Virus record (IMG/VR): IMGVR_UViG_638341196_000003
Reading direction: 5' to 3' (one strand)
DNA from: a virus
Lineage: Duplodnaviria; Heunggongvirae; Uroviricota; Caudoviricetes
DNA: 19,177 nucleotides
The position numbers were made by a program, and so were the translations under genes. Below the pieces are notes generated by a model. That model had not been told where the DNA came from. It made no database searches and saw only the letters and a list, made by a program, of their open reading frames with translations. This document shows, one piece after another, positions 1,003 to 19,177 of the stretch (position 1 is its first letter; each line of letters begins with the position of its first letter).

Positions 1003-1042
1003 GTTGTATTAGCTTACATATCTATGGCACAGAGTAAAGCCT

Positions 1043-1087
1043 AATCTGATAGTCCGCTCTGTGCCAGGAGCAGACATTGCCAACGTT
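1043..1087. repeat. Copy 1 of a ~30-38 bp repeat family (core TGTGCCAGGAGC-R-GAC-R-TTGCCA), about 40 bp after the G stop
   Basis: Hand alignment: 1052-1087 matches 5062-5097 at about 30 of 38 positions (direct); 1043-1080 matches the reverse complement of 10722-10759 at 31 of 38. Confidence 0.5.
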
Positions 1088-1470
1088 ATGACCCTCGATT
1101 ACATCAAAGAGCCCTATAGCCGAAACCTGCACCATAGCCATCTCTGTAGAATTCGTCCTAGGGGCTTTTAACAGACCTAGTTGTATGGATCGGAAGGAAA
1201 TATTAAAGCTCAAGGCGTCAGTCCAGTGCTGTCCTGTTTGCTTACCACACGAAAGAGTGCTGCTTGTACCTGCTAACTAATGGTATGCGGAGTGAGGGGG
1301 GCGGGTAGAACCAAAAGCACTTACTACGTGTGGCGCTCTCCTGGAAGAGGAGACGTCGAAGTGATAACGCTAACAACAGTCTTACTGGTGATGCAAATAA
1401 TGCTAGCTGGTCTGGTTGCCATCAAGCAACTGACCGGACGCCCGTAAGGGATGGAGGAACTTGATTAAAG

Positions 1471-1492
1471 GCAGGGGGGTTACCTCCCCTGC
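1471..1492 (+). terminator. Stem-loop of an intrinsic terminator split by IS2; its U-tract continues at 2829-2840
   Basis: GCAGGGG(G)...CCCCTGC stem ends exactly at the IS2 left junction. Removing IS2 and one copy of the CCTGC duplication gives GCAGGGGGGTTACCTCCCCTGC followed by CTTTTTTCGTTT. Confidence 0.5.
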
Positions 1493-1583
1493 TAGACTGG
1501 CCCCCTGAATCTCCAGACAACCAGTATCACTTAAATAAGTGATAGTCTTAATACTAGTTTTTAGACTAGTCATTGGAGTACAG

Positions 1584-1949
1584 ATGATTGATGTCTTAGG
1601 GCCGGAGAAACGCAGACGGCGTACCACACAGGAAAAGATCGCAATTGTTCAGCAGAGCTTTGAACCGGGGATGACGGTCTCCCTCGTTGCCCGGCAACAT
1701 GGTGTAGCAGCCAGCCAGTTATTTCTCTGGCGTAAGCAATACCAGGAAGGAAGTCTTACTGCTGTGGCCGCCGGAGAACAGGTTGTTCCTGCCTCTGAAC
1801 TTGCTGCCGCCATGAAGCAGATTAAAGAACTCCAGCGCCTGCTCGGCAAGAAAACGATGGAAAATGAACTCCTCAAAGAAGCCGTTGAATATGGACGGGC
1901 AAAAAAGTGGATAGCGCACGCGCCCTTATTGCCCGGGGATGGGGAGTAA
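1584..1949 (+). CDS. insC: IS2 transposase OrfA (InsC)
   Basis: 121-aa product [26 protein letters not shown]... with helix-turn-helix; ATG is the 16th codon of the listed ORF 1539-1949. Confidence 0.9.
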
Positions 1950-2812
1950 GCTTAGTCAGCCGTTGTCTCCGGGTGTCGCGTGCGCAGTTGCACGTCATTC
2001 TCAGACGAACCGATGACTGGATGGATGGCCGCCGCAGTCGTCACACTGATGATACGGATGTGCTTCTCCGTATACACCATGTTATCGGAGAGCTGCCCAC
2101 GTATGGTTATCGTCGGGTATGGGCGCTGCTTCGCAGACAGGCAGAACTTGATGGTATGCCTGCGATCAATGCCAAACGTGTTTACCGGATCATGCGCCAG
2201 AATGCGCTGTTGCTTGAGCGAAAACCTGCTGTACCGCCATCGAAACGGGCACATACAGGCAGAGTGGCCGTGAAAGAAAGCAATCAGCGATGGTGCTCTG
2301 ACGGGTTCGAGTTCTGCTGTGATAACGGAGAGAGACTGCGTGTCACGTTCGCGCTGGACTGCTGTGATCGTGAGGCACTGCACTGGGCGGTGACTACCGG
2401 CGGCTTCAACAGTGAAACAGTACAGGACGTCATGCTGGGAGCGGTGGAACGCCGCTTCGGCAACGATCTTCCGTCGTCTCCAGTGGAGTGGCTGACGGAT
2501 AATGGTTCATGCTACCGGGCTAATGAAACACGCCAGTTCGCCCGGATGTTGGGACTTGAACCGAAGAACACGGCGGTGCGGAGTCCGGAGAGTAACGGAA
2601 TAGCAGAGAGCTTCGTGAAAACGATAAAGCGTGACTACATCAGTATCATGCCCAAACCAGACGGGTTAACGGCAGCAAAGAACCTTGCAGAGGCGTTCGA
2701 GCATTATAACGAATGGCATCCGCATAGTGCGCTGGGTTATCGCTCGCCACGGGAATATCTGCGGCAGCGGGCTTGTAATGGGTTAAGTGATAACAGATGT
2801 CTGGAAATATAG
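1907..2812 (+). CDS. insD: IS2 transposase OrfB (InsD), DDE catalytic domain; normally made as an OrfAB fusion by -1 frameshifting
   Basis: 301-aa ORF overlapping orfA; A6G slippery run (GCAAAAAAGTGG) near 1896-1905; C-terminal [12 protein letters not shown] motif typical of the IS3 family. Confidence 0.9.
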
Positions 2813-2856
2813 GGGCAAATCCACCTGCCTTTTTTCGTTTCTGCGCAAGTTAGCTC

Positions 2857-2868
2857 TGTTATTATAAT
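2857..2868 (+). promoter_or_regulatory. Putative sigma70 -10 region (TGTTATTATAAT, extended -10 like) for the downstream 227-aa ORF
   Basis: TG-n-TATTAT / TATAAT hexamers 30-40 bp upstream of the ATG at 2899, immediately right of the IS2 end; no clear -35. Confidence 0.3.
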
Positions 2869-2898
2869 CCTTACTCACACTGTAAGGACATAGTTCAA

Positions 2899-3582
2899 AT
2901 GACTGAATGGCTTAATGCACATTTTGGTGCAGACGCAGCTACCTATCTTAGCTTATTAGTCGGCGTACTGGCACTGTTTGGTATTGGGGGCGGTGTTACA
3001 TATAGAATCAGACAGCAAAACAACATAAAACAGAAGGCAAAGAAAACCGAGGGTGATGTGAACCAGGCCGGGCGGGATATTAATCAGACCACCAACGTTT
3101 ACCACACATCCAATGAATCTACTGAGGACCCTGTAAAAAAAAAGCAAGATGAACATGATCTGAAGATAATCGACCAGATCCTTGAATTGCTGCCTTATGA
3201 GGATACTACTCAATGGGTTGAGCAGAGCTACCTGAGCGGTATACGGCAAGATGTTTGCTTAAACATTGAAAAAGCTGAAAAATTTAGCGGTGAAAAGTAT
3301 CGGTTATTCAATACTGAAGTGAATGGTGCGAAAGACGCTTTTTTGGACGCTATGACCGCATACGTAGATAGTACGCTACCATTTATGAGTGTTGATTACC
3401 CGAACAGAAAGCCAGTGATGCTAAGCCTTCCCCATGACTGGAAGAGTAAGAGTGTTGAATCGGAGGCAAACTTCCGCTTTCATCAGCAAAATGTGCGTGA
3501 AACATCGGGGGGGATGATTGCGCGCTATGAGGATTTTGTCAGGACATTTAAGGCTCATGGATTCATAAGCGATAAACTGTAA
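2899..3582 (+). CDS. Hypothetical membrane-anchored protein (227 aa): one N-terminal transmembrane helix, charged linker, soluble C-terminal domain; non-phage cargo
   Basis: Intact ORF with ATG start; hydrophobic segment YLSLLVGVLALFGIGGGV at residues ~16-33, then a Lys/Glu-rich linker. Own promoter-like region upstream and an intrinsic terminator downstream (rebuilt across the IS10-like insertion). No family recognised. Confidence 0.5.
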   Translation: MTEWLNAHFGADAATYLSLLVGVLALFGIGGGVTYRIRQQNNIKQKAKKTEGDVNQAGRDINQTTNVYHTSNESTEDPVKKKQDEHDLKIIDQILELLPYEDTTQWVEQSYLSGIRQDVCLNIEKAEKFSGEKYRLFNTEVNGAKDAFLDAMTAYVDSTLPFMSVDYPNRKPVMLSLPHDWKSKSVESEANFRFHQQNVRETSGGMIARYEDFVRTFKAHGFISDKL

Positions 3583-3675
3583 AGGCGCAGTGGGTCAGCG
3601 AACACCGCAACGACAGAACCGCGTAAGCGGTAAAATCAGCTTGTTAACTGGCGAGTTTATAGCCGTCCCTCCGGG

Positions 3676-4976
3676 CTGAGGGATCCCCACAAAATTACTG
3701 CTAATAAACCAGCACCATATTTCGGTAGGTTCTGGACAGATGGTTTAGAACTGTGCTCAGTACTGTTCGTCTTAAAATAAGTGGCGAGTGTCGAAGAACA
3801 TTCTTCGCTAACGTCAGATATGAGATAACCCGCCGGGATTTAATGCTGTTAGCCTGATATTTCAGGTGTAACCCTTTATTTTCAGCGTGATAACCGAGTA
3901 ACCACATTACGATAGTGCTCAACGTTGCCAGCAGACTCAGAACCAGAATTCTTCCTGTTGAACGACTTTTGCTGGCCCGAAGACCAAATCCGAAGCGCCC
4001 GTTCTTTTCATCACGAAAGTTTTGCTCTATCTGCATTCGCCGACTGTATAACTTGATGATTTCTCGCGCTCTGAAGTCATTTGTACTGCTGAAGATCAAC
4101 CAGGCTTCTTTTGCTGATTTGCTCTGTTCTTTGTCTGTTTTGTTTAAACCACTCTGACCTTTCGAACGTTTCTTTTTTCGCCCTTTTGCCGATTTCTTAT
4201 AGGTGTAAAAATGCCCCCGGATGCTTTTTTTCCTTTCTTTAACCAGCCTTCCAGCCTCCATATATTCCGGTGTTTTACATTCAGGGCTATCCGACACTTT
4301 TAACCATCTTTCAGGCGCGTTATCGAGGCAATACTGAACGTTATTTCTGATCCGACCAATAAAATCCCAGCCCAGAGAAGTAATATGGTGAAACCATGCG
4401 CTCTGAAATCCAGCATCCGTGACAATAATAACCCTGGCATCGGGGGGCAGGGATTGAGCAAGGGAATCAAGGAAATCATGTTGTATCAATGGATTATTTT
4501 GTTTTTCAGAAGGAACAACCTTACTCAATAACGGAATGGAACGCCCGTCACACAGAAGGCTGGCACGAAGAACATGATGCTCCTGGGAGGGATAGCCACT
4601 CCAGTCTACGGCTATTACACATAAAGATAACTGCCGTGTCAGCATTGAAGTGATATTCCTGAAAATCATTGGAATATCGCGATGGAGCGCCTCATTACCC
4701 ATGAGGCGATCAATACGTTTGCTCTTATTCTTAACTTGTGCATTACCCGGGAAAAAACGTCCGATACTGGTCAGCGTCAGAGATGCTCCGTTGATTAACG
4801 CCACTGTGGCATCCATCAGGGCATTTTGTCGGTACTGATGAAATGGTGCTAAGGCATCCCGGAAGAAATTCTGACATACTTTATGAACAGGCATAGCAGT
4901 GATCTCATTGAATTGTTGGCACAAATCAGTAGATCACATAATGCTATGTCTGTCTCGTTTTCTGGGAATTCCTCAG
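3676..4976 (-). mobile_element. IS4-family, IS10-like insertion sequence (1301 bp)
   Basis: Imperfect terminal inverted repeats CTGAGGGATCCCCACAAAATT (left) and CTGAGGAATTCCCAGAAAACG (right, reverse complement), 17 of 23 matching, resembling the IS10 end CTGATGAATCCCC. Perfect 9-bp duplication CCCTCCGGG at 3667-3675 and 4977-4985. Confidence 0.7.
3701..4924 (-). CDS. IS4-family (IS10 group-like) DDE transposase, 407 aa
   Basis: Shares landmarks with IS10 transposase as recalled (KRIDRLxGN, VDWS, RAS...GRS, DAGF, IYSxRMQIEQxFRD); stop 25 bp from the left inverted repeat. Confidence 0.85.
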   Translation of the reverse strand: MCQQFNEITAMPVHKVCQNFFRDALAPFHQYRQNALMDATVALINGASLTLTSIGRFFPGNAQVKNKSKRIDRLMGNEALHRDIPMIFRNITSMLTRQLSLCVIAVDWSGYPSQEHHVLRASLLCDGRSIPLLSKVVPSEKQNNPLIQHDFLDSLAQSLPPDARVIIVTDAGFQSAWFHHITSLGWDFIGRIRNNVQYCLDNAPERWLKVSDSPECKTPEYMEAGRLVKERKKSIRGHFYTYKKSAKGRKKKRSKGQSGLNKTDKEQSKSAKEAWLIFSSTNDFRAREIIKLYSRRMQIEQNFRDEKNGRFGFGLRASKSRSTGRILVLSLLATLSTIVMWLLGYHAENKGLHLKYQANSIKSRRVISYLTLAKNVLRHSPLILRRTVLSTVLNHLSRTYRNMVLVY

Positions 4977-5061
4977 CCCTCCGGGGCGGCTTTTTTATGA
5001 CTATAATCGACAGAATCACCTGAACGTCCAGGTGGGTTTCCCTGACAGGACGTCAAGGAAT

Positions 5062-5097
5062 GTTCGCTTTGTGCCAGGAGCGGACGTTGCCAGCATT
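5062..5097. repeat. Copy 2 of the repeat family, direct relative to copy 1, about 150 bp upstream of the 261-aa ORF
   Basis: Hand alignment to 1052-1087, about 30 of 38 identical, including an uninterrupted TGTGCCAGGAGC. Confidence 0.5.
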
Positions 5098-5246
5098 GAG
5101 TTTTCAGTTTTCAAAGGTATATCTTTAGATTTAGTTCACTTAGAATGAGCGTGTTAAAGTTTTCGGTTATGTGAGTATATTGAACATAACAAATAAACAA
5201 TAATTTTTGTATTCCATTTAGGATATAAAAAAGAGGGATTTGAGTT

Positions 5247-6032
5247 ATGTACGATTATAGTTTTTTACTTACTCCATCTACAGGATTTGTTAAAGGATTA
5301 TGTGGAGTTTGGTCGAATGATTTCTCTATAAATGATGATTCTGACTCTGATTTAGGGCAAACAGATATTCATTTACTTTCATCTCCTCATTTGAATATCA
5401 TATCCGACCCAAATGAATTGGCTTCCAAGTTAAAAGGTTTGTTGATGCTCATGAACGGCGCACTTAGCGTTCTTTATGGTTTTGAAAGATATCAATCTTT
5501 TGGTCCTCTTTCTATTTCTGGAAGTGAAGGCATTAATTACTCGGAAATATGCGGCTTTAAATCAATGGATGTAACTCAGGTAAACCCCTTTAATTTCCAT
5601 GACATACAGCAACCACACCCTCGCGCTGATAATTTTTCACGATTAATTAATTTATCATCTAAACATGAATCCTTACGTGTTGTTTTAGGTATGTGTGCCT
5701 TAGGTTATGATTGGGTTAATCTTTATCGTTTGTGGGAAACAATTAGAGAATATGTATATGATAAATATGTGAAAGGTATACTAAATTTCCCCGACGCTTA
5801 TAAAGGCAAGAAATATCAGAGAGATAAAGTAATTAGCATGGCTTTTAATATTGATGAAAAGGAAATCAGCAGATTCACGGGCACTGCTAATAGCTTTGAA
5901 CTGTTAGGGTATCTTGCGAGACATGGAAAGGGAAGTTCCGGAGGGATATTAAAAAATCCGATGTCAAGAGTTGACGCAAGCATTTTCGTACACAAAGCAA
6001 CTTACAAATATTGTAAGTTATTTTTGATGTAA
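5247..6032 (+). CDS. Hypothetical protein (261 aa), AT-rich non-phage cargo gene
   Basis: Intact ORF with ATG and an upstream AGAGGGA ribosome-binding site; the gene and its upstream region are visibly AT-rich compared with the flanking tail genes. No transmembrane segment or recognisable motif. Confidence 0.5.
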   Translation: MYDYSFLLTPSTGFVKGLCGVWSNDFSINDDSDSDLGQTDIHLLSSPHLNIISDPNELASKLKGLLMLMNGALSVLYGFERYQSFGPLSISGSEGINYSEICGFKSMDVTQVNPFNFHDIQQPHPRADNFSRLINLSSKHESLRVVLGMCALGYDWVNLYRLWETIREYVYDKYVKGILNFPDAYKGKKYQRDKVISMAFNIDEKEISRFTGTANSFELLGYLARHGKGSSGGILKNPMSRVDASIFVHKATYKYCKLFLM

Positions 6033-6124
6033 GTAAAAAGTTGAAGCTATAATACTCAAAGTATCGAAAACTACGTTCGTCGTGCACTCGAAAACAATAT
6101 GCTTATTGTGTCTGCACTAATTAC

Positions 6125-6161
6125 TCAAGGTCCGAGAAAAATGGCGAAGCTCATCTTTTTC
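6125..6161 (-). terminator. Intrinsic terminator serving the minus-strand HNH-like gene (hairpin GGCGAAGC/GCTTCGCC followed on the minus strand by AUUUUUCUC)
   Basis: Perfect 8-bp inverted repeat at 6133-6140 and 6154-6161, about 33 nt past the stop at 6194-6196; lies between two convergent cargo genes. Confidence 0.45.
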
Positions 6162-6193
6162 AGGCTTCGCCAACTTGAGTTATTGGTTAAAAT

Positions 6194-6372
6194 TCATTTA
6201 GGAATAATAGAATGCAATTCGTGACTCACCTGGATTTCATAGTGTTTCAATAGTTCTCCGATGTTAATTCCTACTACCTTACGAACTGCGCCGAGGGAGA
6301 AGTTAAGCTCCTCAATGCCCGGCCGATCTGGCGTTGAATTCATATAGTGTCGGCACGCACGGACAATTGACT
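6194..6372 (-). pseudogene. 3' segment (last 58 codons plus stop) of the HNH-like cargo gene interrupted by the IS911-like element
   Basis: Minus-strand frame at 6370 continues in phase the frame ending at 8845 once the IS and one copy of the ACT duplication are removed. The N-terminal residues of listed ORF 6194-6451 lie inside the IS end and are an artefact. Confidence 0.6.
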
Positions 6373-6380
6373 TGAAGTGG

Positions 6381-8509
<2,129 letters not shown>

Positions 8510-8510
8510 G

Positions 8511-8772
8511 TAGCCTTTTTTAATATTTCATTCTCCATTTCAATGCGTTGTAGCTTTTTCCTCAGCTTACGTATTTCGATTTGTTCTGGTGTTATCGGAG
8601 AGGCTTTTGGTGTTTTGCCCTGACGCTCATCACGCAGTTGTTTGACCCATCTTGTCATTGTGGAAAGGCCAACATCCATAGCTTTGGCGGCATCTGCCAC
8701 CGTGTATTTCTGGTCAACAACCAGTTGAGCGGATTCGCGTTTAAACTCTGCGCTAAAATTTCTTTTTTTCAT
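8511..8772 (-). pseudogene. IS911-like orfA, 5' portion (codons 1-88) cut by IS30; the last 12 codons and stop resume at 7288-7247
   Basis: [56 protein letters not shown]...EILKKAT, then IS30; downstream of IS30 the frame reads [12 protein letters not shown]-stop. Confidence 0.8.
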
Positions 8773-8844
8773 TGGAGCACCTGTGTTGTTCTGAGGCGAG
8801 CATATCACCTCTGTTCAGGTGGCCAAATTCAGTGTGCCACTTCA

Positions 8845-9421
8845 ACTCGACGATCAACGATAGCGGAGACTCAGGTGCAATCTCGGAGCGAATCGCCGTA
8901 AGAGAGAGTCGGAGCTCCTTCAAAGAATCCGAGACTCGTGCTGGATCCTCTTGAGCATATGGCAGATAAAGAGAACTCTTGTCTTCCAATAAATGGATCA
9001 ACCGCAGAGCAATTTTCTCGTCTGGGCGATGCGATAGAAATTGAAACATTAGCCTCTTTCCTCCCTCCAAGCACTCCTTCATTAGTGATTCGTGGTTACG
9101 TTTCCATTTTCGCAAATACTCGGCGGGGTAGCCCATACCGCCATTCTTATCAACTAAATCAGCACAAGCTCCGCACAACCATATAGCATTTTTTATGCTC
9201 TTCCGCTCTGTTTCTGACTGAGACATGTCATAGCGCGGTCCGCCAGGGCTCGCCGCGCAGATATGCGCCGCCTCACCCGTCTTGATAGAAAGATTTTCCG
9301 CCAATTGATCCGGGCCGATTGTTACCCTATGACAAGAGGGATTGCTACAAATATATGTAGCGCGCTCTGCTACCTTACCTACAACGCTTGGAGGAAAGTT
9401 GTGCCTATTTGTCTTGGTCAT
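8845..9421 (-). pseudogene. 5' segment (codons 1-192) of the HNH-like cargo gene interrupted by the IS911-like element
   Basis: ATG at 9421; product carries CSNPSCH...GEAAHICAASPGG...NAIWLCGACADLVD, an HNH-type Cys/His/Asn signature with non-canonical substitutions. The tail of listed ORF 8753-9421 beyond 8845 is read-through into the IS. Confidence 0.6.
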
Positions 9422-9492
9422 AAAAGTTATGCTTCTTTGTTTTTTTCATCTATGTGGGGAGAATAAAATCATACTTTTTATATCTGATCCTA

Positions 9493-10645
9493 AATAGCTG
9501 CGCTTAATACCGCTACACTTTTGCCAGTCCATGTTTGCCTCCGGGGAATGGGCTGACGGTTTCCATAAAATGGCGAACTTTTTTCAACAGTTGCCACATT
9601 GAGCGGCACTGATGATTACGCGTTATTGTGTCGTGAAGTGCCTGCCATAGCCGTTCAACATGATTCACCCATGGCGAGTAAACCGGCTGATAAATGACCC
9701 TGAACTTCGGGTTCTCCTTCAGCCAGCTCTGTGTTTCCCGGCTTTTGTGGATAATGTAGTTGTCCACGATCAGCGTGATGGTTTTCGCCCGACGGTATGT
9801 CGCTTTAAGCCGCTTCAGCAGGCTGATGAACAGCGCCGAACTTTTGCTGTTGCCGCCCACATAGCTGACTTTACCTGTCCCGCTGTGCAGCGCTCCGGCC
9901 AGATAATATTTTTCATTCTGTCCCGGCGTGACCACCCGTTTTTGCTGTCCGCGCAGTTGCCAGTCCGCACCGATTTTGGGATGAAGATGGATATCCACTT
10001 CATCTTCATAAAAGACCGGATGCTCTGCGCTGCATTCGTCCAGTGCTTTATGGATTGCTGCCATCTTTTCATCTTTATGCGGGTCACGGATACGCAGAGT
10101 TGGCGCAGCCCTTCGCCACACAATCCCCGCAGACGGCAACCAGCGGCGAACGGTTCCGGCATTTAACTGGCAACCGGTTATCTCATTGATTTTTATTGCC
10201 AGCAGTTCTGTACTCCAGCGTGAACGCTGGTAGACAAAGTCGCCGGGAGAATGTTTTACCAGCTCACGTAACAGTGTGCAGATATGCTCAAACGGCCAGC
10301 GACGGGCACGCCCGGCAGGTAATGATTTCAGTCCCTCAACACCCGACTGCGTGAACCAGTTAATCCAGCGTCCAACAGAGGAACGGGCGCAGCAGAGCGT
10401 TCTGGCAACGTCGCTGACACGGTCGCCCCGGTGCAGCATCAGCATGGCAGTCAGTCTGCGGGCATAATTTTTATCGTGTGTTTTATGGATGGCTTTCTGC
10501 ATCAGGCGTCGTTCGTCACGGGAAATTGGTGCTATGATCGGCATTGCTCAGTCCGGTTGGTGATTTGTTTTGATTTGGCGATTGATCAGATCGCACAATC
10601 CGGGCTAAGTTCCCTCAAAATGATCTACTATTCCGCGCAGCTATT
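9493..10645 (-). mobile_element. IS630 insertion sequence, complete (1153 bp)
   Basis: 343-aa transposase; imperfect terminal inverted repeats (AATAGCTGCGC...); flanking TA duplication at 9491-9492 and 10646-10647; reconstructed target GATCCTAGGTCTG contains CTAG. Confidence 0.9.
9513..10544 (-). CDS. IS630 (Tc1/mariner superfamily) transposase
   Basis: 343-aa product MPIIAPISRDERRLMQKAIHKTHDKNYARRL... matches IS630 transposase from recall. Confidence 0.9.
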   Translation of the reverse strand: MPIIAPISRDERRLMQKAIHKTHDKNYARRLTAMLMLHRGDRVSDVARTLCCARSSVGRWINWFTQSGVEGLKSLPAGRARRWPFEHICTLLRELVKHSPGDFVYQRSRWSTELLAIKINEITGCQLNAGTVRRWLPSAGIVWRRAAPTLRIRDPHKDEKMAAIHKALDECSAEHPVFYEDEVDIHLHPKIGADWQLRGQQKRVVTPGQNEKYYLAGALHSGTGKVSYVGGNSKSSALFISLLKRLKATYRRAKTITLIVDNYIIHKSRETQSWLKENPKFRVIYQPVYSPWVNHVERLWQALHDTITRNHQCRSMWQLLKKVRHFMETVSPFPGGKHGLAKV

Positions 10646-10721
10646 TAGGTCTGACCAGCAACCTATTGATCAAAAAACCAAGATATTAGCTAAAAAAAAT
10701 CAGCATACTTGAGACCAAGCT

Positions 10722-10759
10722 CAATGTCCGCTCCTCGCTCAAAGCAGACTGTCAGATTT
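10722..10759. repeat. Copy 3 of the repeat family, inverted relative to copy 1, about 180 bp upstream of FI
   Basis: 10722-10759 matches the reverse complement of 1043-1080 at 31 of 38 positions by hand alignment. Confidence 0.5.
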
Positions 10760-10819
10760 GATAGCATTTGGGCTATGTAAATTGTCAGGCGGAAAATGAG
10801 TGAGTACAAATCAGGACAG

Positions 10820-10849
10820 GCGGGCGAATTGCCCGCATTTTCTTTATCT
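10820..10849 (+). terminator. Terminator-like hairpin (GCGGGC-GAATT-GCCCGC followed by ATTTTCTTTATCT) upstream of FI
   Basis: Perfect 6-bp GC stem with 5-nt loop and a T-rich tail on the + strand; could insulate the FI late operon from the cargo island. Confidence 0.35.
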
Positions 10850-10941
10850 GTTGTTTCATCCCCTGACCAGCCAGGTCAAATAGCGTCTCATGCTCTGCAC
10901 AACAGAAAATAGTTGCACCCATTAACCACGGAGTTAAACGG

Positions 10942-12144: not shown

Positions 12145-12662
12145 ATGGCAATGCCGCGCAAACTCAAGTTAATGAACGTCTTTCTGAACGGCTACAGCTA
12201 TCAGGGCGTTGCAAAGTCCGTCACGCTGCCAAAACTGACCCGTAAACTCGAAAACTATCGCGGTGCGGGGATGAACGGAAGCGCACCGGTAGACCTCGGC
12301 CTTGATGACGATGCGCTGTCAATGGAGTGGTCGCTCGGGGCTTCCCGGATTCGGTTATCTGGGAGCTCTACGCCGCAACCGGCGTGGATGCCGTACCGAT
12401 TCGTTTTGCTGGCTCTTACCAGCGCGACGATACCGGCGAAACGGTGGCCGTCGAGGTGGTCATGCGTGGCCGTCAGAAAGAAATCGACACCGGCGAGGGG
12501 AAACAGGGAGAAGACACCGAGTCGAAAATCTCCGTGGTCTGCACCTATTTCCGGCTGACGATGGACGGTAAGGAGCTGGTCGAAATCGACACCATCAACA
12601 TGATTGAGAAGGTGAACGGTGTCGACCGGCTGGAGCAACACCGCCGCAATATCGGCCTGTGA
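12145..12662 (+). pseudogene. FII: Tail tube protein (P2 gpFII-like), frame disrupted near 12337-12340
   Basis: N-terminal 62 codons in frame 1 (…LSMEWSLG), remainder in the overlapping frame (GFPDSVIWELYAAT…) of listed ORFs 12145-12558 and 12327-12662. The break sits in a G4 run where one more G would restore a ~172-aa protein. Confidence 0.6.
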
Positions 12663-16080: not shown

Positions 16081-17243
16081 TGCTGGATGCGCTGACATTT
16101 GATGCAGGCAGTACGCTGACGCCGGATTACATGCTGATGCTCGACAGCAGGGATATTACCGGCAATATCAGCGACCGTCTGATGAGCATGACCCTGACGG
16201 ATAACCGGGGCTTTGAGGCTGACCAGCTTGATATTGAACTGAACGATGCCGACGGGCAGGTCGGGCTGCCGGTTCGTGGCGCTGTCCTGACGGTGTATAT
16301 CGGCTGGAAAGGTTTTGCCCTGGTATGCAAAGGGAAATTTACCGTTGATGAGGTTGAACACCGGGGCGCACCGGATGTGGTCACCATCCGCGCCCGGAGT
16401 GCAGATTTTCGCGGGACGCTCAATTCCCGCCGGGAAGGCTCATGGCATGACACCACGCTCGGTGCGATTGTTGAGGCGATAGCCTCCCGGAACAGGCTGG
16501 AAGCCAGTGTCGCTCCGTCACTGGCCGGAATTAAAATTCCGCACATCGACCAGTCGCAGGAGTCTGATGCGAAATTCCTGACCCGCCTTGCTGAACGCAA
16601 CGGCGGTGAGGTGTCGGTAAAAATGGGAAAACTGCTGTTTCTCAAAGCGGGGCAGGGGGTGACGGCCAGCGGTAAAAAAATCCCGCAGATTACCATCACC
16701 CGCAGCGACGGCGACCGTCATCATTTTGCGATTGCTGACCGTGGAGCCTACACCGGCGTAATGGCAAAGTGGTTACACACCAAAGACCCGAAGCCACAAA
16801 AGCAGAAGATAAAACTGAAACGCAAAAAGAAAGAGAAACACCTGCGCGCACCGGAGCACCCGAAAGCGAAACCGGTCAGGCAGAAGAAAGCGCCTAAAGT
16901 ACCGGAAGCGCGCGAAGGTGAATACATGGCCGGTGAGGCTGATAACGTTTTTGCCCTGACTACGGTATATGCCACAAAAGCGCAGGCCATGCGCGCCGCT
17001 CAGGCGAAGTGGGATAAGCTGCAACGGGGCGTGGCGGAGTTCTCCATCAGTCTGGCTACTGGTCGGGCAGATATTTACACGGAAACGCCGGTCAAAGTGT
17101 CAGGTTTTAAGCGCGTCATAGACGAGCAGGACTGGACAATCACTAAGGTGACACACTTTCTGAATAATAGCGGCTTCACGACGTCCTTAGAGCTTGAGGT
17201 CAGGCTTTCTGATGTGGAGTACGAAACAGAAGGTGATGAGTAA
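16080..17243 (+). CDS. D: Tail protein D (P2 gpD-like)
   Basis: 387-aa ORF with a Lys-rich internal segment (KPQKQKIKLKRKKKEK), same length and position as P2 D. Confidence 0.85.
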   Translation: MLDALTFDAGSTLTPDYMLMLDSRDITGNISDRLMSMTLTDNRGFEADQLDIELNDADGQVGLPVRGAVLTVYIGWKGFALVCKGKFTVDEVEHRGAPDVVTIRARSADFRGTLNSRREGSWHDTTLGAIVEAIASRNRLEASVAPSLAGIKIPHIDQSQESDAKFLTRLAERNGGEVSVKMGKLLFLKAGQGVTASGKKIPQITITRSDGDRHHFAIADRGAYTGVMAKWLHTKDPKPQKQKIKLKRKKKEKHLRAPEHPKAKPVRQKKAPKVPEAREGEYMAGEADNVFALTTVYATKAQAMRAAQAKWDKLQRGVAEFSISLATGRADIYTETPVKVSGFKRVIDEQDWTITKVTHFLNNSGFTTSLELEVRLSDVEYETEGDE

Positions 17244-17324
17244 TGTTTTGTTTTTATCTGTTTGTTTTATAAGGGTAAATTAACTAAAATGGCACCATCA
17301 ACAAAACCGGAAGAGGTGCTCGCG

Positions 17325-17543
17325 ATGTTTCATTGTCCTTTATGCCAGCATGCCGCACATGCGCGTACAAGCCGCTATATCACTGACACGACAAAAGAGC
17401 GTTATCACCAGTGTCAGAACGTGAATTGCAGTGCCACGTTCATCACTTATGAGTCGGTACAGCGATACATCGTGAAGCCGGGAGAAGTCCACGCCGTAAG
17501 GCCGCACCCGTTGCCATCAGGGCAGCAAATTATGTGGATGTAA
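17325..17543 (+). CDS. ogr: Late-gene transcription activator Ogr (zinc-finger protein)
   Basis: 72-aa product MFHCPLCQHAAHARTSRYITDTTKERYHQCQNVNCSATF... with the Cys4 motif; begins at the third Met of listed ORF 17262-17543. Confidence 0.85.
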   Translation: MFHCPLCQHAAHARTSRYITDTTKERYHQCQNVNCSATFITYESVQRYIVKPGEVHAVRPHPLPSGQQIMWM

Positions 17544-17556
17544 TTACAAACAGAAA

Positions 17557-17582
17557 GCCCCTCAGTCGAGGGGCTTTTTTGT
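17557..17582 (+). terminator. Intrinsic terminator after ogr (GCCCCTC-AGTC-GAGGGGC followed by TTTTTTGT)
   Basis: Perfect 7-bp GC-rich stem, 4-nt loop, T6 tract 14 nt after the ogr stop. Confidence 0.6.
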
Positions 17583-17644
17583 CGATGTGGTCAATGTGTG
17601 GACGTGACCAGAAATAAATCCTTTTATTTCAATTTATTGTACGT

Positions 17645-17671
17645 AAAAAATAAGCCCGTGTAAGGGAGATT
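17645..17671. other. Probable prophage right attachment-site core (AAAAAATAAGCCCGTGTAAGGGAGATT) overlapping the cyaR 3' end
   Basis: The 27-nt string matches the P2 att core as I recall it and sits between the ogr terminator and the body of cyaR; recollection only, not verified. Confidence 0.45.
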
Positions 17672-17731
17672 ACACAGGCTAAGGAGGTGGTTCCTGGTAC
17701 AGCTAGCATTTTATGGGTTATGTTTTTCAGC
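17645..17731 (-). ncRNA. cyaR: CyaR (RyeE) Hfq-dependent small RNA
   Basis: Reverse complement reads GCUGAAAAACAUAACCCAUAAAAUGCUAGCUGUACCAGGAACCACCUCCUUAGCCUGUGUAAUCUCCCUUACACGGGCUUAUUUUUU, an 87-nt RNA with terminator hairpin and U-tract; lies between ogr and yegQ as in E. coli K-12. Confidence 0.85.
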
Positions 17732-17738
17732 GAAACGG

Positions 17739-17781
17739 ATGATAACCTTAATAAATGCAACTGTATGTGATCGGTTTCTAA
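17739..17781 (-). promoter_or_regulatory. cyaR promoter: -10 hexamer TATCAT (17739-17744) and a class II CRP half-site pair TGTGA-N6-TCTAA (17766-17781)
   Basis: -10 lies 8-13 nt upstream of the inferred 5' end at 17731; CRP-like site is centred about 42 nt upstream, consistent with known CRP dependence of cyaR. Confidence 0.5.
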
Positions 17782-17815
17782 GAATTTTCCATCCGGGAAA
17801 AATAATCGAAATTAA

Positions 17816-19177
17816 TCACTTACCGTGGGGGTTACGCGTGGTTTCCCCGGAGAAATTACGCATTAGCAGCGCGTAATTTAGCTCAAGATCCTGCGGGACC
17901 GGGAGCCACACAGTATAACCATCGCCTGGTGCGACCGGCATAGCTTCGCCTTTGGCGTTTTCCATGTGCTCAAGGGTAAAGTTAATGTTGCCTTGCGGCG
18001 TCATCAGCTCAAGACTGTCGCCAACGGAGAATTTATTTTTCACCGCTACCGCTGCGAGGTCCCCCTTGCGCTCACCGGTAAACTCACCAACAAACTGCTG
18101 GCGGTCAGAAACTGAATAACCGTATTCGTAGTTCTGATAATCGTCGTGAGTATGACGACGCAGGAAACCTTCGGTATAGCCACGATGCGCCAGACCTTCC
18201 AGAGTTTCCAGCAGGCTGGTATCGAACGGTTTTCCCGCAGCGGCGTCATCGATAGCTTTGCGGTAAACCTGTGCGGTGCGTGCGCAATAGTAGAAAGATT
18301 TGGTACGACCTTCGATTTTCAGCGAATGCACGCCCATTTTGGTCAGGCGTTCTACATGGGCGATGGCGCGCAGATCTTTCGAGTTCATGATGTAAGTGCC
18401 GTGCTCATCTTCAAACGCGGTCATATACTCGCCCGGACGCTGGGCCTCTTCGATCATAAACACTTTGTCGGTTGGCGCGCCGATACCCAGCGTCGGCTCA
18501 ACATTTTGCACCGGAATCGGCTCGTACTTGTGTACGATGTTGCCAACGTCATCTTCTTTCCCTTCCTGGACGTTGTACTCCCAGCGGCAGGCGTTGGTGC
18601 AGGTACCCTGGTTCGGATCGCGCTTGTTGATATAGCCAGAGAGCAGGCAGCGACCGGAGTAGGCCATGCACAGTGCGCCGTGAACGAAGATCTCGATCTC
18701 CATATCCGGCACCTGATTGCGGATCTCTTCAATCTCTTCAAGCGACAGCTCGCGAGAGAGGATCACGCGGGTCAGGCCCATTTGCTGCCAGAATTTCACC
18801 GTCGCCCAGTTTACGGCGTTAGCCTGCACCGAGAGGTGGATCGGCATTTCAGGGAAGTGCTCACGCACCAGCATAATCAGCCCTGGATCGGACATAATCA
18901 GCGCATCCGGCCCCATTTCCACCACCGGTTTCAGGTCACGGATAAAGGTTTTCAGCTTGGCGTTGTGCGGTGCAATGTTGACCACGACATAAAACTTTTT
19001 CCCCAGCGCGTGGGCTTCATTGATGCCGAGCTGAAGATTTTCGTGGTTGAATTCGTTGTTGCGCACACGTAGGGAGTAACGCGGCTGGCCCGCATAAACA
19101 GCATCTGCGCCATAAGCGAAAGCGTAACGCATATTTTTCAGCGTTCCCGCCGGGGAAAGGAGTTCCGGTTTAAACAT
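17816..19177 (-). CDS. yegQ: Peptidase U32-family protein YegQ (TrhP, tRNA hydroxylation)
   Basis: 453-aa ORF MFKPELLSPAGTLKNMRYAFAYGADAVYAGQPRYSLRVRNNEF... with conserved Cys residues; start codon at the window edge (19175-19177). Confidence 0.9.
   Translation of the reverse strand: MFKPELLSPAGTLKNMRYAFAYGADAVYAGQPRYSLRVRNNEFNHENLQLGINEAHALGKKFYVVVNIAPHNAKLKTFIRDLKPVVEMGPDALIMSDPGLIMLVREHFPEMPIHLSVQANAVNWATVKFWQQMGLTRVILSRELSLEEIEEIRNQVPDMEIEIFVHGALCMAYSGRCLLSGYINKRDPNQGTCTNACRWEYNVQEGKEDDVGNIVHKYEPIPVQNVEPTLGIGAPTDKVFMIEEAQRPGEYMTAFEDEHGTYIMNSKDLRAIAHVERLTKMGVHSLKIEGRTKSFYYCARTAQVYRKAIDDAAAGKPFDTSLLETLEGLAHRGYTEGFLRRHTHDDYQNYEYGYSVSDRQQFVGEFTGERKGDLAAVAVKNKFSVGDSLELMTPQGNINFTLEHMENAKGEAMPVAPGDGYTVWLPVPQDLELNYALLMRNFSGETTRNPHGK

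Follow-up and report, generated by a model that had tools for sequence, protein, structure and literature searches.

Organization of the locus

The stretch of DNA analysed here (19,177 nt, hereafter the window) corresponds over its full length, with 0 mismatches, to positions 118055-137231 of contig AAMJ02000002.1 (GCA_000168075.1), an assembly that we take to be that of Shigella dysenteriae 1012. Exact matches to two proteins of the window, gpD and the tail-fibre assembly protein, led to this contig. The features at its right end, which runs from phage genes through an attachment site into the host genes cyaR and yegQ, are collected in Table 1. The Pfam family Phage_GPD was matched by a product identical to the protein of the window's gene D. 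The ogr ORF matches phrog_603 (1.3e-28) and occupies the same place as the annotated Ogr of P2, in agreement with an earlier note on this DNA that had named ogr as the last phage gene. The 429-nt segment that starts at the end of D, includes ogr and reaches the core is 98.1% identical to P2.

Downstream of ogr, a hairpin scan finds a G+C-rich stem of 10 bp (AAAGCCCCTC-AGTC-GAGGGGCTTT), made of the same bases that are annotated at 24265-24288 of P2 as "rho-independent terminator for ogr transcript and F operon". The terminator claimed in the earlier note is thus present, but the end assigned to it, 17582, lies too far downstream, since the T run stops 2 nt and the hairpin 5 nt before that position. 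The same note had treated the 62 nt between terminator and core as a spacer. An interval of this size does exist (62-64 nt, depending on the end chosen; the A+T-rich stretch from the T run to the core is 64 nt long), but the spacer reading fails: judged by its sequence, the interval is the P arm of attP and would be functional as such. It contains two direct repeats, TGTGGTCA (17586-17593) and TGTGGACG (17597-17604), set 11 nt apart, both of which agree with tgTGGaCa, the consensus of P2-type Int arm sites (PMC3448106).

The 27-mer that follows, AAAAAATAAGCCCGTGTAAGGGAGATT, is present as a single copy in the window (0.00 copies expected from 200 shuffles) and is identical at 27 of 27 positions to the feature annotated as "attP" in the P2 record AF063097 (24356-24382), so that its earlier identification as the P2 att core proves right. 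The features of that record follow one another in the order ogr/F-operon terminator, Int "P arm", IHF, Int core site, Cox sites, P′ arm and int. Because window positions 17530-17671 equal P2 base for base, the terminator, Int arm, IHF and core features of P2 can be transferred directly to the window. From the same annotation, we infer that the terminator would function and that Int and IHF would bind at these positions.

On the host side, a cmscan search recovers CyaR/RyeE (RF00112) at full length (1-85 of 85) with 100.7 bits (E = 1.8e-19; gathering score 47), and this is the sole Rfam match in the whole window. The minus-strand CyaR RNA that had been placed at 17645-17731 is therefore present, with limits that are those of the 87-nt transcript up to the last U of its tail. 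Folding of these 87 nt predicts a seed hairpin and the terminator. The att core coincides with nucleotides 61-87 of CyaR. Within the terminator, it starts two bases before the loop, at the end of the 5′ stem arm, and takes in the loop itself, the whole 3′ arm of the stem and the U tail. Beyond cyaR lies a minus-strand ORF of 453 aa, annotated as yegQ/trhP in E. coli records, and the distance between yegQ and cyaR is 157-160 nt in the window as well as in those other genera for which a distance is given. cyaR and its upstream region are identical to those of E. coli apart from one SNP at 17760, an A where CFT073 and K-12 have G; it falls in the promoter spacer, about 29 nt upstream of the cyaR 5′ end, and is probably neutral.

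Table 1. Features of the attachment-site region and insertion sequences of the window (window coordinates)
Feature	Position	Strand	Basis
gene D (tail protein / late control D; penultimate phage gene)	16080-17243	+	387-aa ORF; gpD of P2 AF063097
ogr (late-gene transcription activator; last phage gene before the attachment site)	17325-17543	+	72-aa ORF
ogr/F operon intrinsic terminator	hairpin 17554-17577, T run to 17580	+	hairpin scan and P2 annotation
putative Int arm-type binding region, P arm of attP	17582-17609	+	same sequence as P2 "Int, P arm" 24293-24320
putative IHF binding site of the P arm	17613-17646	+	same sequence as P2 "IHF" 24324-24357
27-nt common core of attR (attP core = attB core; last 27 nt of cyaR)	17645-17671		P2 annotation, homology breakpoints
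cyaR (ryeE) sRNA gene	17645-17733 (Rfam match 17648-17733; 87-nt transcript read from 17731 to 17645)	-	RF00112
CyaR intrinsic terminator hairpin	17653-17680	-	11-bp stem, 6-nt loop, U tail; loop and 3′ arm inside the att core
host B′ side: cyaR body and promoter, then yegQ/trhP (17816-19177)	17672-19177	-	identity to CFT073
IS2	1539-2812
IS4 family element	3701-4924
IS3 family element	6381-7220
IS30 family element	7296-8447
IS630 family element (inside the window)	9513-10544

Phage and host homologies overlap in the core

We located the junction from both of its sides. On the phage side, a megablast search of 17243-17815 against phage genomes showed that P2 and five other Peduovirus genomes (11 records among the matches listed) match from 17243 to 17671 and end there; in a pairwise alignment, P2 is identical over 17530-17671 and unrelated past 17671. 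The comparison with P2 attP that had been proposed in the earlier note thus gives a match that runs through 17671 and no further. On the host side, 17400-17950 was searched by megablast against 5,426 complete E. coli genomes, 5,424 of which match. In 1,132 of the E. coli genomes, ogr is joined to cyaR as it is in the window, and the match spans ogr to yegQ. At the ogr-less sites, as sampled, the match begins at query position 245/246, which corresponds to 17644/17645 of the window. Comparison with prophage-free sites, also proposed earlier, therefore places the breakpoint at 17644/17645, and the segment shared between the two sides is the 27-nt P2 core.

The flanks of the core switch in a reciprocal manner. 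The 75 nt to its left agree with P2 attP at 75 of 75 positions and with attB of CFT073 at 20 of 75, while the 75 nt to its right agree with the CFT073 site at 75 of 75 and with P2 attP at 12 of 75. What the phage and host blocks have in common is just the 27-mer plus one T at 17644. As both partners are identical within the 27 bp, the crossover point maps to this segment as a whole and to no single position in it. The unoccupied site in CFT073 has the order gatD, DeoR regulator, yegS, yegR, core/cyaR, yegQ. The interval between yegR and yegQ is presumably the locI of Barreiro and Haggard-Ljungquist (1992).

The same comparison bears on the fate of the sRNA gene. With 100.7 bits, CyaR reaches the same score at the unoccupied site of CFT073 as in the occupied window, and an RNA search of the P2 attP region and of the left junction described below found a CyaR-like RNA in neither. 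Since the phage and host blocks share only the core, and these 27 nt form the 3′ end of CyaR, the sRNA has one and the same sequence in occupied and empty sites. The phage evidently brings only this 3′ segment and restores the sRNA gene base for base, as happens at tRNA genes, which is in line with the earlier proposal of integration into the 3′ end of an sRNA gene with regeneration of that gene.

The left junction delimits a 19.4-kb element

A search of the source contig for a second copy of the core, as suggested in the earlier note, yielded a perfect copy in direct orientation at contig positions 116307-116333 (7779-7805 of our locus L127), which is 1,747-1,721 nt to the left of window position 1. 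The left junction had been said to lie outside the window, and this copy, attL, does so by 1.7 kb in the same contig. The distance from attL to attR is 19,392 bp. The left junction is intact in its anatomy, with a host B arm, the core, and a P′ arm with Cox and Int sites; its right flank is identical to P2 over the Cox sites and the P′ Int repeats and on into int, of which ~215 nt at the 3′ end are present, and the match to P2 ends at the inverted repeat of an IS630-family element inside int. A related lysogen, E. coli FXCREC004, likewise has two perfect cores, 26.8 kb apart, of which the left one lies between the yegR-side host flank and a P2 P′ arm, with int 80 nt away.

With both junctions in hand, we can ask whether the element results from an integration of its own. 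E. coli K-12 carries a cryptic remnant, ogrK-D′, with the same layout of ogr, P arm, core and cyaR on the right side, and the flanks of the core agree between K-12 and the window at 70 of 75 positions on the left and 75 of 75 on the right, as would be expected if both strains had inherited one ancient remnant vertically. We regard this as very improbable. The attL core of K-12 is truncated and fused to the middle of D, whereas the window element has a perfect 27-mer followed by a complete P′ arm and still holds 17 kb of late genes. Its P arm, moreover, agrees with P2 at 75 of 75 positions, as against 70 of 75 with the K-12 remnant. Finally, sister assemblies retain the genes from capsid through tail, so that the deletion in the present element is recent and its decay driven by IS elements. 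A separate integration of a P2-type phage therefore remains our preferred reading.

Decay of the element

The earlier note had spoken of a prophage. P2-type integration is confirmed, but a complete prophage is not what lies between the two cores. An intact and inducible P2 prophage would fit the perfect P arm and the two perfect cores, as well as the genes from FI to ogr, which are 96-99% identical to those of P2-like phages; even so, we give this possibility still less weight than descent from the K-12 remnant. Of int, the source contig retains a 3′ stub of ~215 nt, truncated by the IS630-family element, which bridges this stub directly to the 3′ part of the tail-fibre gene H; the window starts inside H, and its positions 1-471 hold the truncated gene. 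The C, cox, replication, capsid, lysis and baseplate genes, together with a complete int, are absent between the two cores. In addition, 4-5 further IS elements lie between the tail-fibre assembly gene G and the sheath gene FI, and the tail-tube gene FII (12145-12662) is frameshifted by a 1-nt deletion near 12339, where the window has CTCGG-GGC and the FXCREC004 prophage has CTCGGTGGC. As read from the contig, the element is a dead, IS-invaded P2 remnant of 19.4 kb with both att sites intact. When the whole window was compared by megablast with complete E. coli genomes, a collection that lacks the source strain, coverage by a single record reached 66% at most.

The IS630-family element at the deletion joint (8019-9177 of locus L127 in the source contig) has terminal inverted repeats of 20 nt. 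The region between G and FI (1003-10941) is a variable locus filled with IS elements of the five families listed in Table 1. Two orphan ORFs in this region, at 2899-3582 and 5247-6032, had no family match in PADLOC, Pfam or NCBIfam. A minus-strand ORF of 222 aa at 8753-9421 matches PDC-M68A of PADLOC over its N-terminal ~115 residues (6e-24), and this part also matches HNH-endonuclease effectors of the CBASS/SAVED type; the ORF is probably what remains of an anti-phage cargo gene that the adjacent IS elements disrupted.

Interpretation of the junction

Taken together, 17543-17731 is almost certainly the attR of a P2-type prophage, formed when the phage entered its preferred site, locI, in the 3′ end of cyaR. 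Every sequence element expected of a P2 attR at locI was found, and it is solely as a functional prophage that the element falls short. That a phage sequence and an sRNA terminator came to share the 27 nt by chance or by convergence, without recombination, is an idea one might draw from the short and low-complexity nature of terminator hairpins, but it is practically negligible given that zero chance matches are expected, that independent blocks of phage and host homology switch exactly at the ends of the 27-mer, and that a second core with reciprocal flanks lies in the same contig, such a reciprocal pair of attL and attR being sufficient to refute it.

P2 integrase is a tyrosine recombinase that binds core and arm sites. 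Starting from the anatomy of the sequence, the two junctions, the empty site and the decay, all of which were observed directly, the P2 annotation and established P2 biology suggest how protein binding and strand exchange may have proceeded here. IHF would bend the P arm and Int would bridge arm and core sites, with strand exchange inside the 27 bp that the attP core shares with the end of cyaR. The expected products are attL, with B arm, core and P′ arm, and attR, with P arm, core and B′ side; the latter would read ogr, terminator, P arm with its Int repeats and IHF site, core, the remainder of cyaR, and yegQ. Because core and target have the same sequence, the CyaR terminator is restored exactly, in its loop and 3′ stem arm as well as in its U tail, and the sRNA gene stays intact; the ogr terminator would stop transcription of the late operon from entering the convergent cyaR. 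The element can no longer excise on its own, since int, cox and most genes are lost. However, both att sites are complete, and we predict that Int and Cox supplied in trans would excise the remnant.

Use of cyaR in other genomes

At the "empty" P2 site of E. coli, the host B arm resembles a diverged P2 P arm and keeps one Int arm repeat, TGTGGTCA. In CFT073, this relic arm (2953-3001 of locus L003) reads TCGATGTGGTCAATG-GAAGACGGTGACCAG and scores 38 in local alignment, where the best of 2,000 shuffles reaches 29; in the source strain (7713-7778 of locus L127), where the similarity also covers the IHF region, it scores 41, and the shuffles reach 24 at most.

We scanned genomes representative of their species with a sequence pattern and obtained 120 cyaR loci, 101 of which also contain yegS. 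The distance from yegS to the 3′ end of cyaR is 74-150 nt in most of these 101 loci and 1,115 nt in E. coli, where the gap holds yegR and the relic arm, an insertion of ~1 kb that is absent in the other Enterobacterales species examined. yegR occurs in E. coli alone among the 120 cyaR loci. YegR matches a PHROG family (2.8e-72), which is weak evidence of phage origin, as PHROGs include genes from prophage borders. No older, degenerate attL core was found between yegS and yegR in CFT073 at up to 9 mismatches in 27, so that the case for a fossil prophage consists of the relic P arm and of synteny.

Clear P2-type arms with repeats at −59 and −48 relative to the core, the spacing of the window's P arm, recur beside cyaR in other genera, namely at both Citrobacter youngae loci and in Citrobacter sp. 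Awk 4, Enterobacter sp. UNJFSC 003, Enterobacteriaceae bacterium G50 and isolate BS0013 (in the last, one repeat under a stricter motif). Single or degraded arm repeats lie by cyaR in Salmonella enterica subsp. diarizonae and a Buttiauxella MAG. In Escherichia albertii, a truncated arm beside cyaR was read by eye. The core in these loci of other genera is a few bases off the E. coli core. A tblastn search at 1e-5 found ogr near cyaR in other genera at 3 of the 120 loci; most of the loci in other genera that bear a P arm are either remnants or carry a divergent activator.

From these comparisons, we read cyaR as a likely cross-genus hot spot for this phage group, with repeated use followed by decay. 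More tentatively, and at somewhat less than an even chance, the "unoccupied" attB of E. coli may itself be a fossil attR, in which case the ~1 kb from yegS to the core would derive from an earlier P2-like prophage and cyaR would have been re-used repeatedly across Enterobacteriaceae. If so, could the relic arm by the core add to the strong site preference of P2?

We also considered the U·G wobble of the E. coli CyaR terminator as a footprint of the 3′ arm supplied by phage, and rejected this; among the 120 species loci, a single G·U in the terminator is equally common without P2 arm motifs (47 of 111 loci) and with them (3 of 9).

Comparison with known systems

That P2 integrates at cyaR is already known from the P2 GenBank annotation and from the genome paper of E. 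coli W (PMC3032704), where Table 2 assigns Wphi2 (P2) of E. coli W, ogr-D′ of K-12 and P2*B of strain B to the insertion site "cyaR RNA". Besides this table, we found no open-access text that pairs cyaR with P2 attachment. The value of the present analysis is thus mainly one of annotation, in that the right border of the remnant is fixed to the base, cyaR is recognized as intact and the whole element is delimited, and it also provides a clean worked example of a phage that uses an sRNA terminator as its attachment site. Only two points go somewhat past known work, the evidence that cyaR has been used repeatedly across genera and that for a relic arm at the "empty" site of E. coli.

A database entry at this locus deserves mention in its own right. 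GenBank AY639599, "Phage TP", covers 17243-17815 of the window at 97.4% identity; although filed as a phage, it is in fact a prophage-host attR junction, in which the CDS called "putative protease" is the host yegQ/trhP and cyaR is unannotated.

Compared with phage P2 itself, which recombines attP with attB at locI by means of Int, IHF and Cox, the 27-nt core, the P arm and the order of D, ogr, terminator and att are identical to AF063097, and the junction is without any difference; it is the element behind the junction that has lost int, cox and most genes. The cryptic remnant of K-12 (ogrK, D′ pseudogene) shares the attR architecture and the host site, but keeps only ~0.6 kb, whereas the window element keeps 19.4 kb with a perfect attL, a P′ arm and the IS630-family joint. 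P2-like prophages in "rybB ncRNA", another insertion site in the same Table 2 (PMC3032704), likewise target an sRNA gene, although the sRNA and the core are different from those at cyaR. As rybB is also on record as a P2-like site, integration into the 3′ ends of sRNA genes may be a recurring habit of this phage group. Finally, integration at the 3′ end of an RNA gene with regeneration of that gene is established for phage 186 in tRNA-Ile and for Fels-2 and SopE-phi in ssrA (PMC3448106). Like these tRNA and tmRNA integrators, the phage at cyaR has its attB in the 3′ part of a structured RNA, and the phage copy of the 3′ segment saves the gene. It differs from them in having an Hfq-type sRNA as its target and in duplicating an intrinsic terminator rather than an acceptor or T arm.
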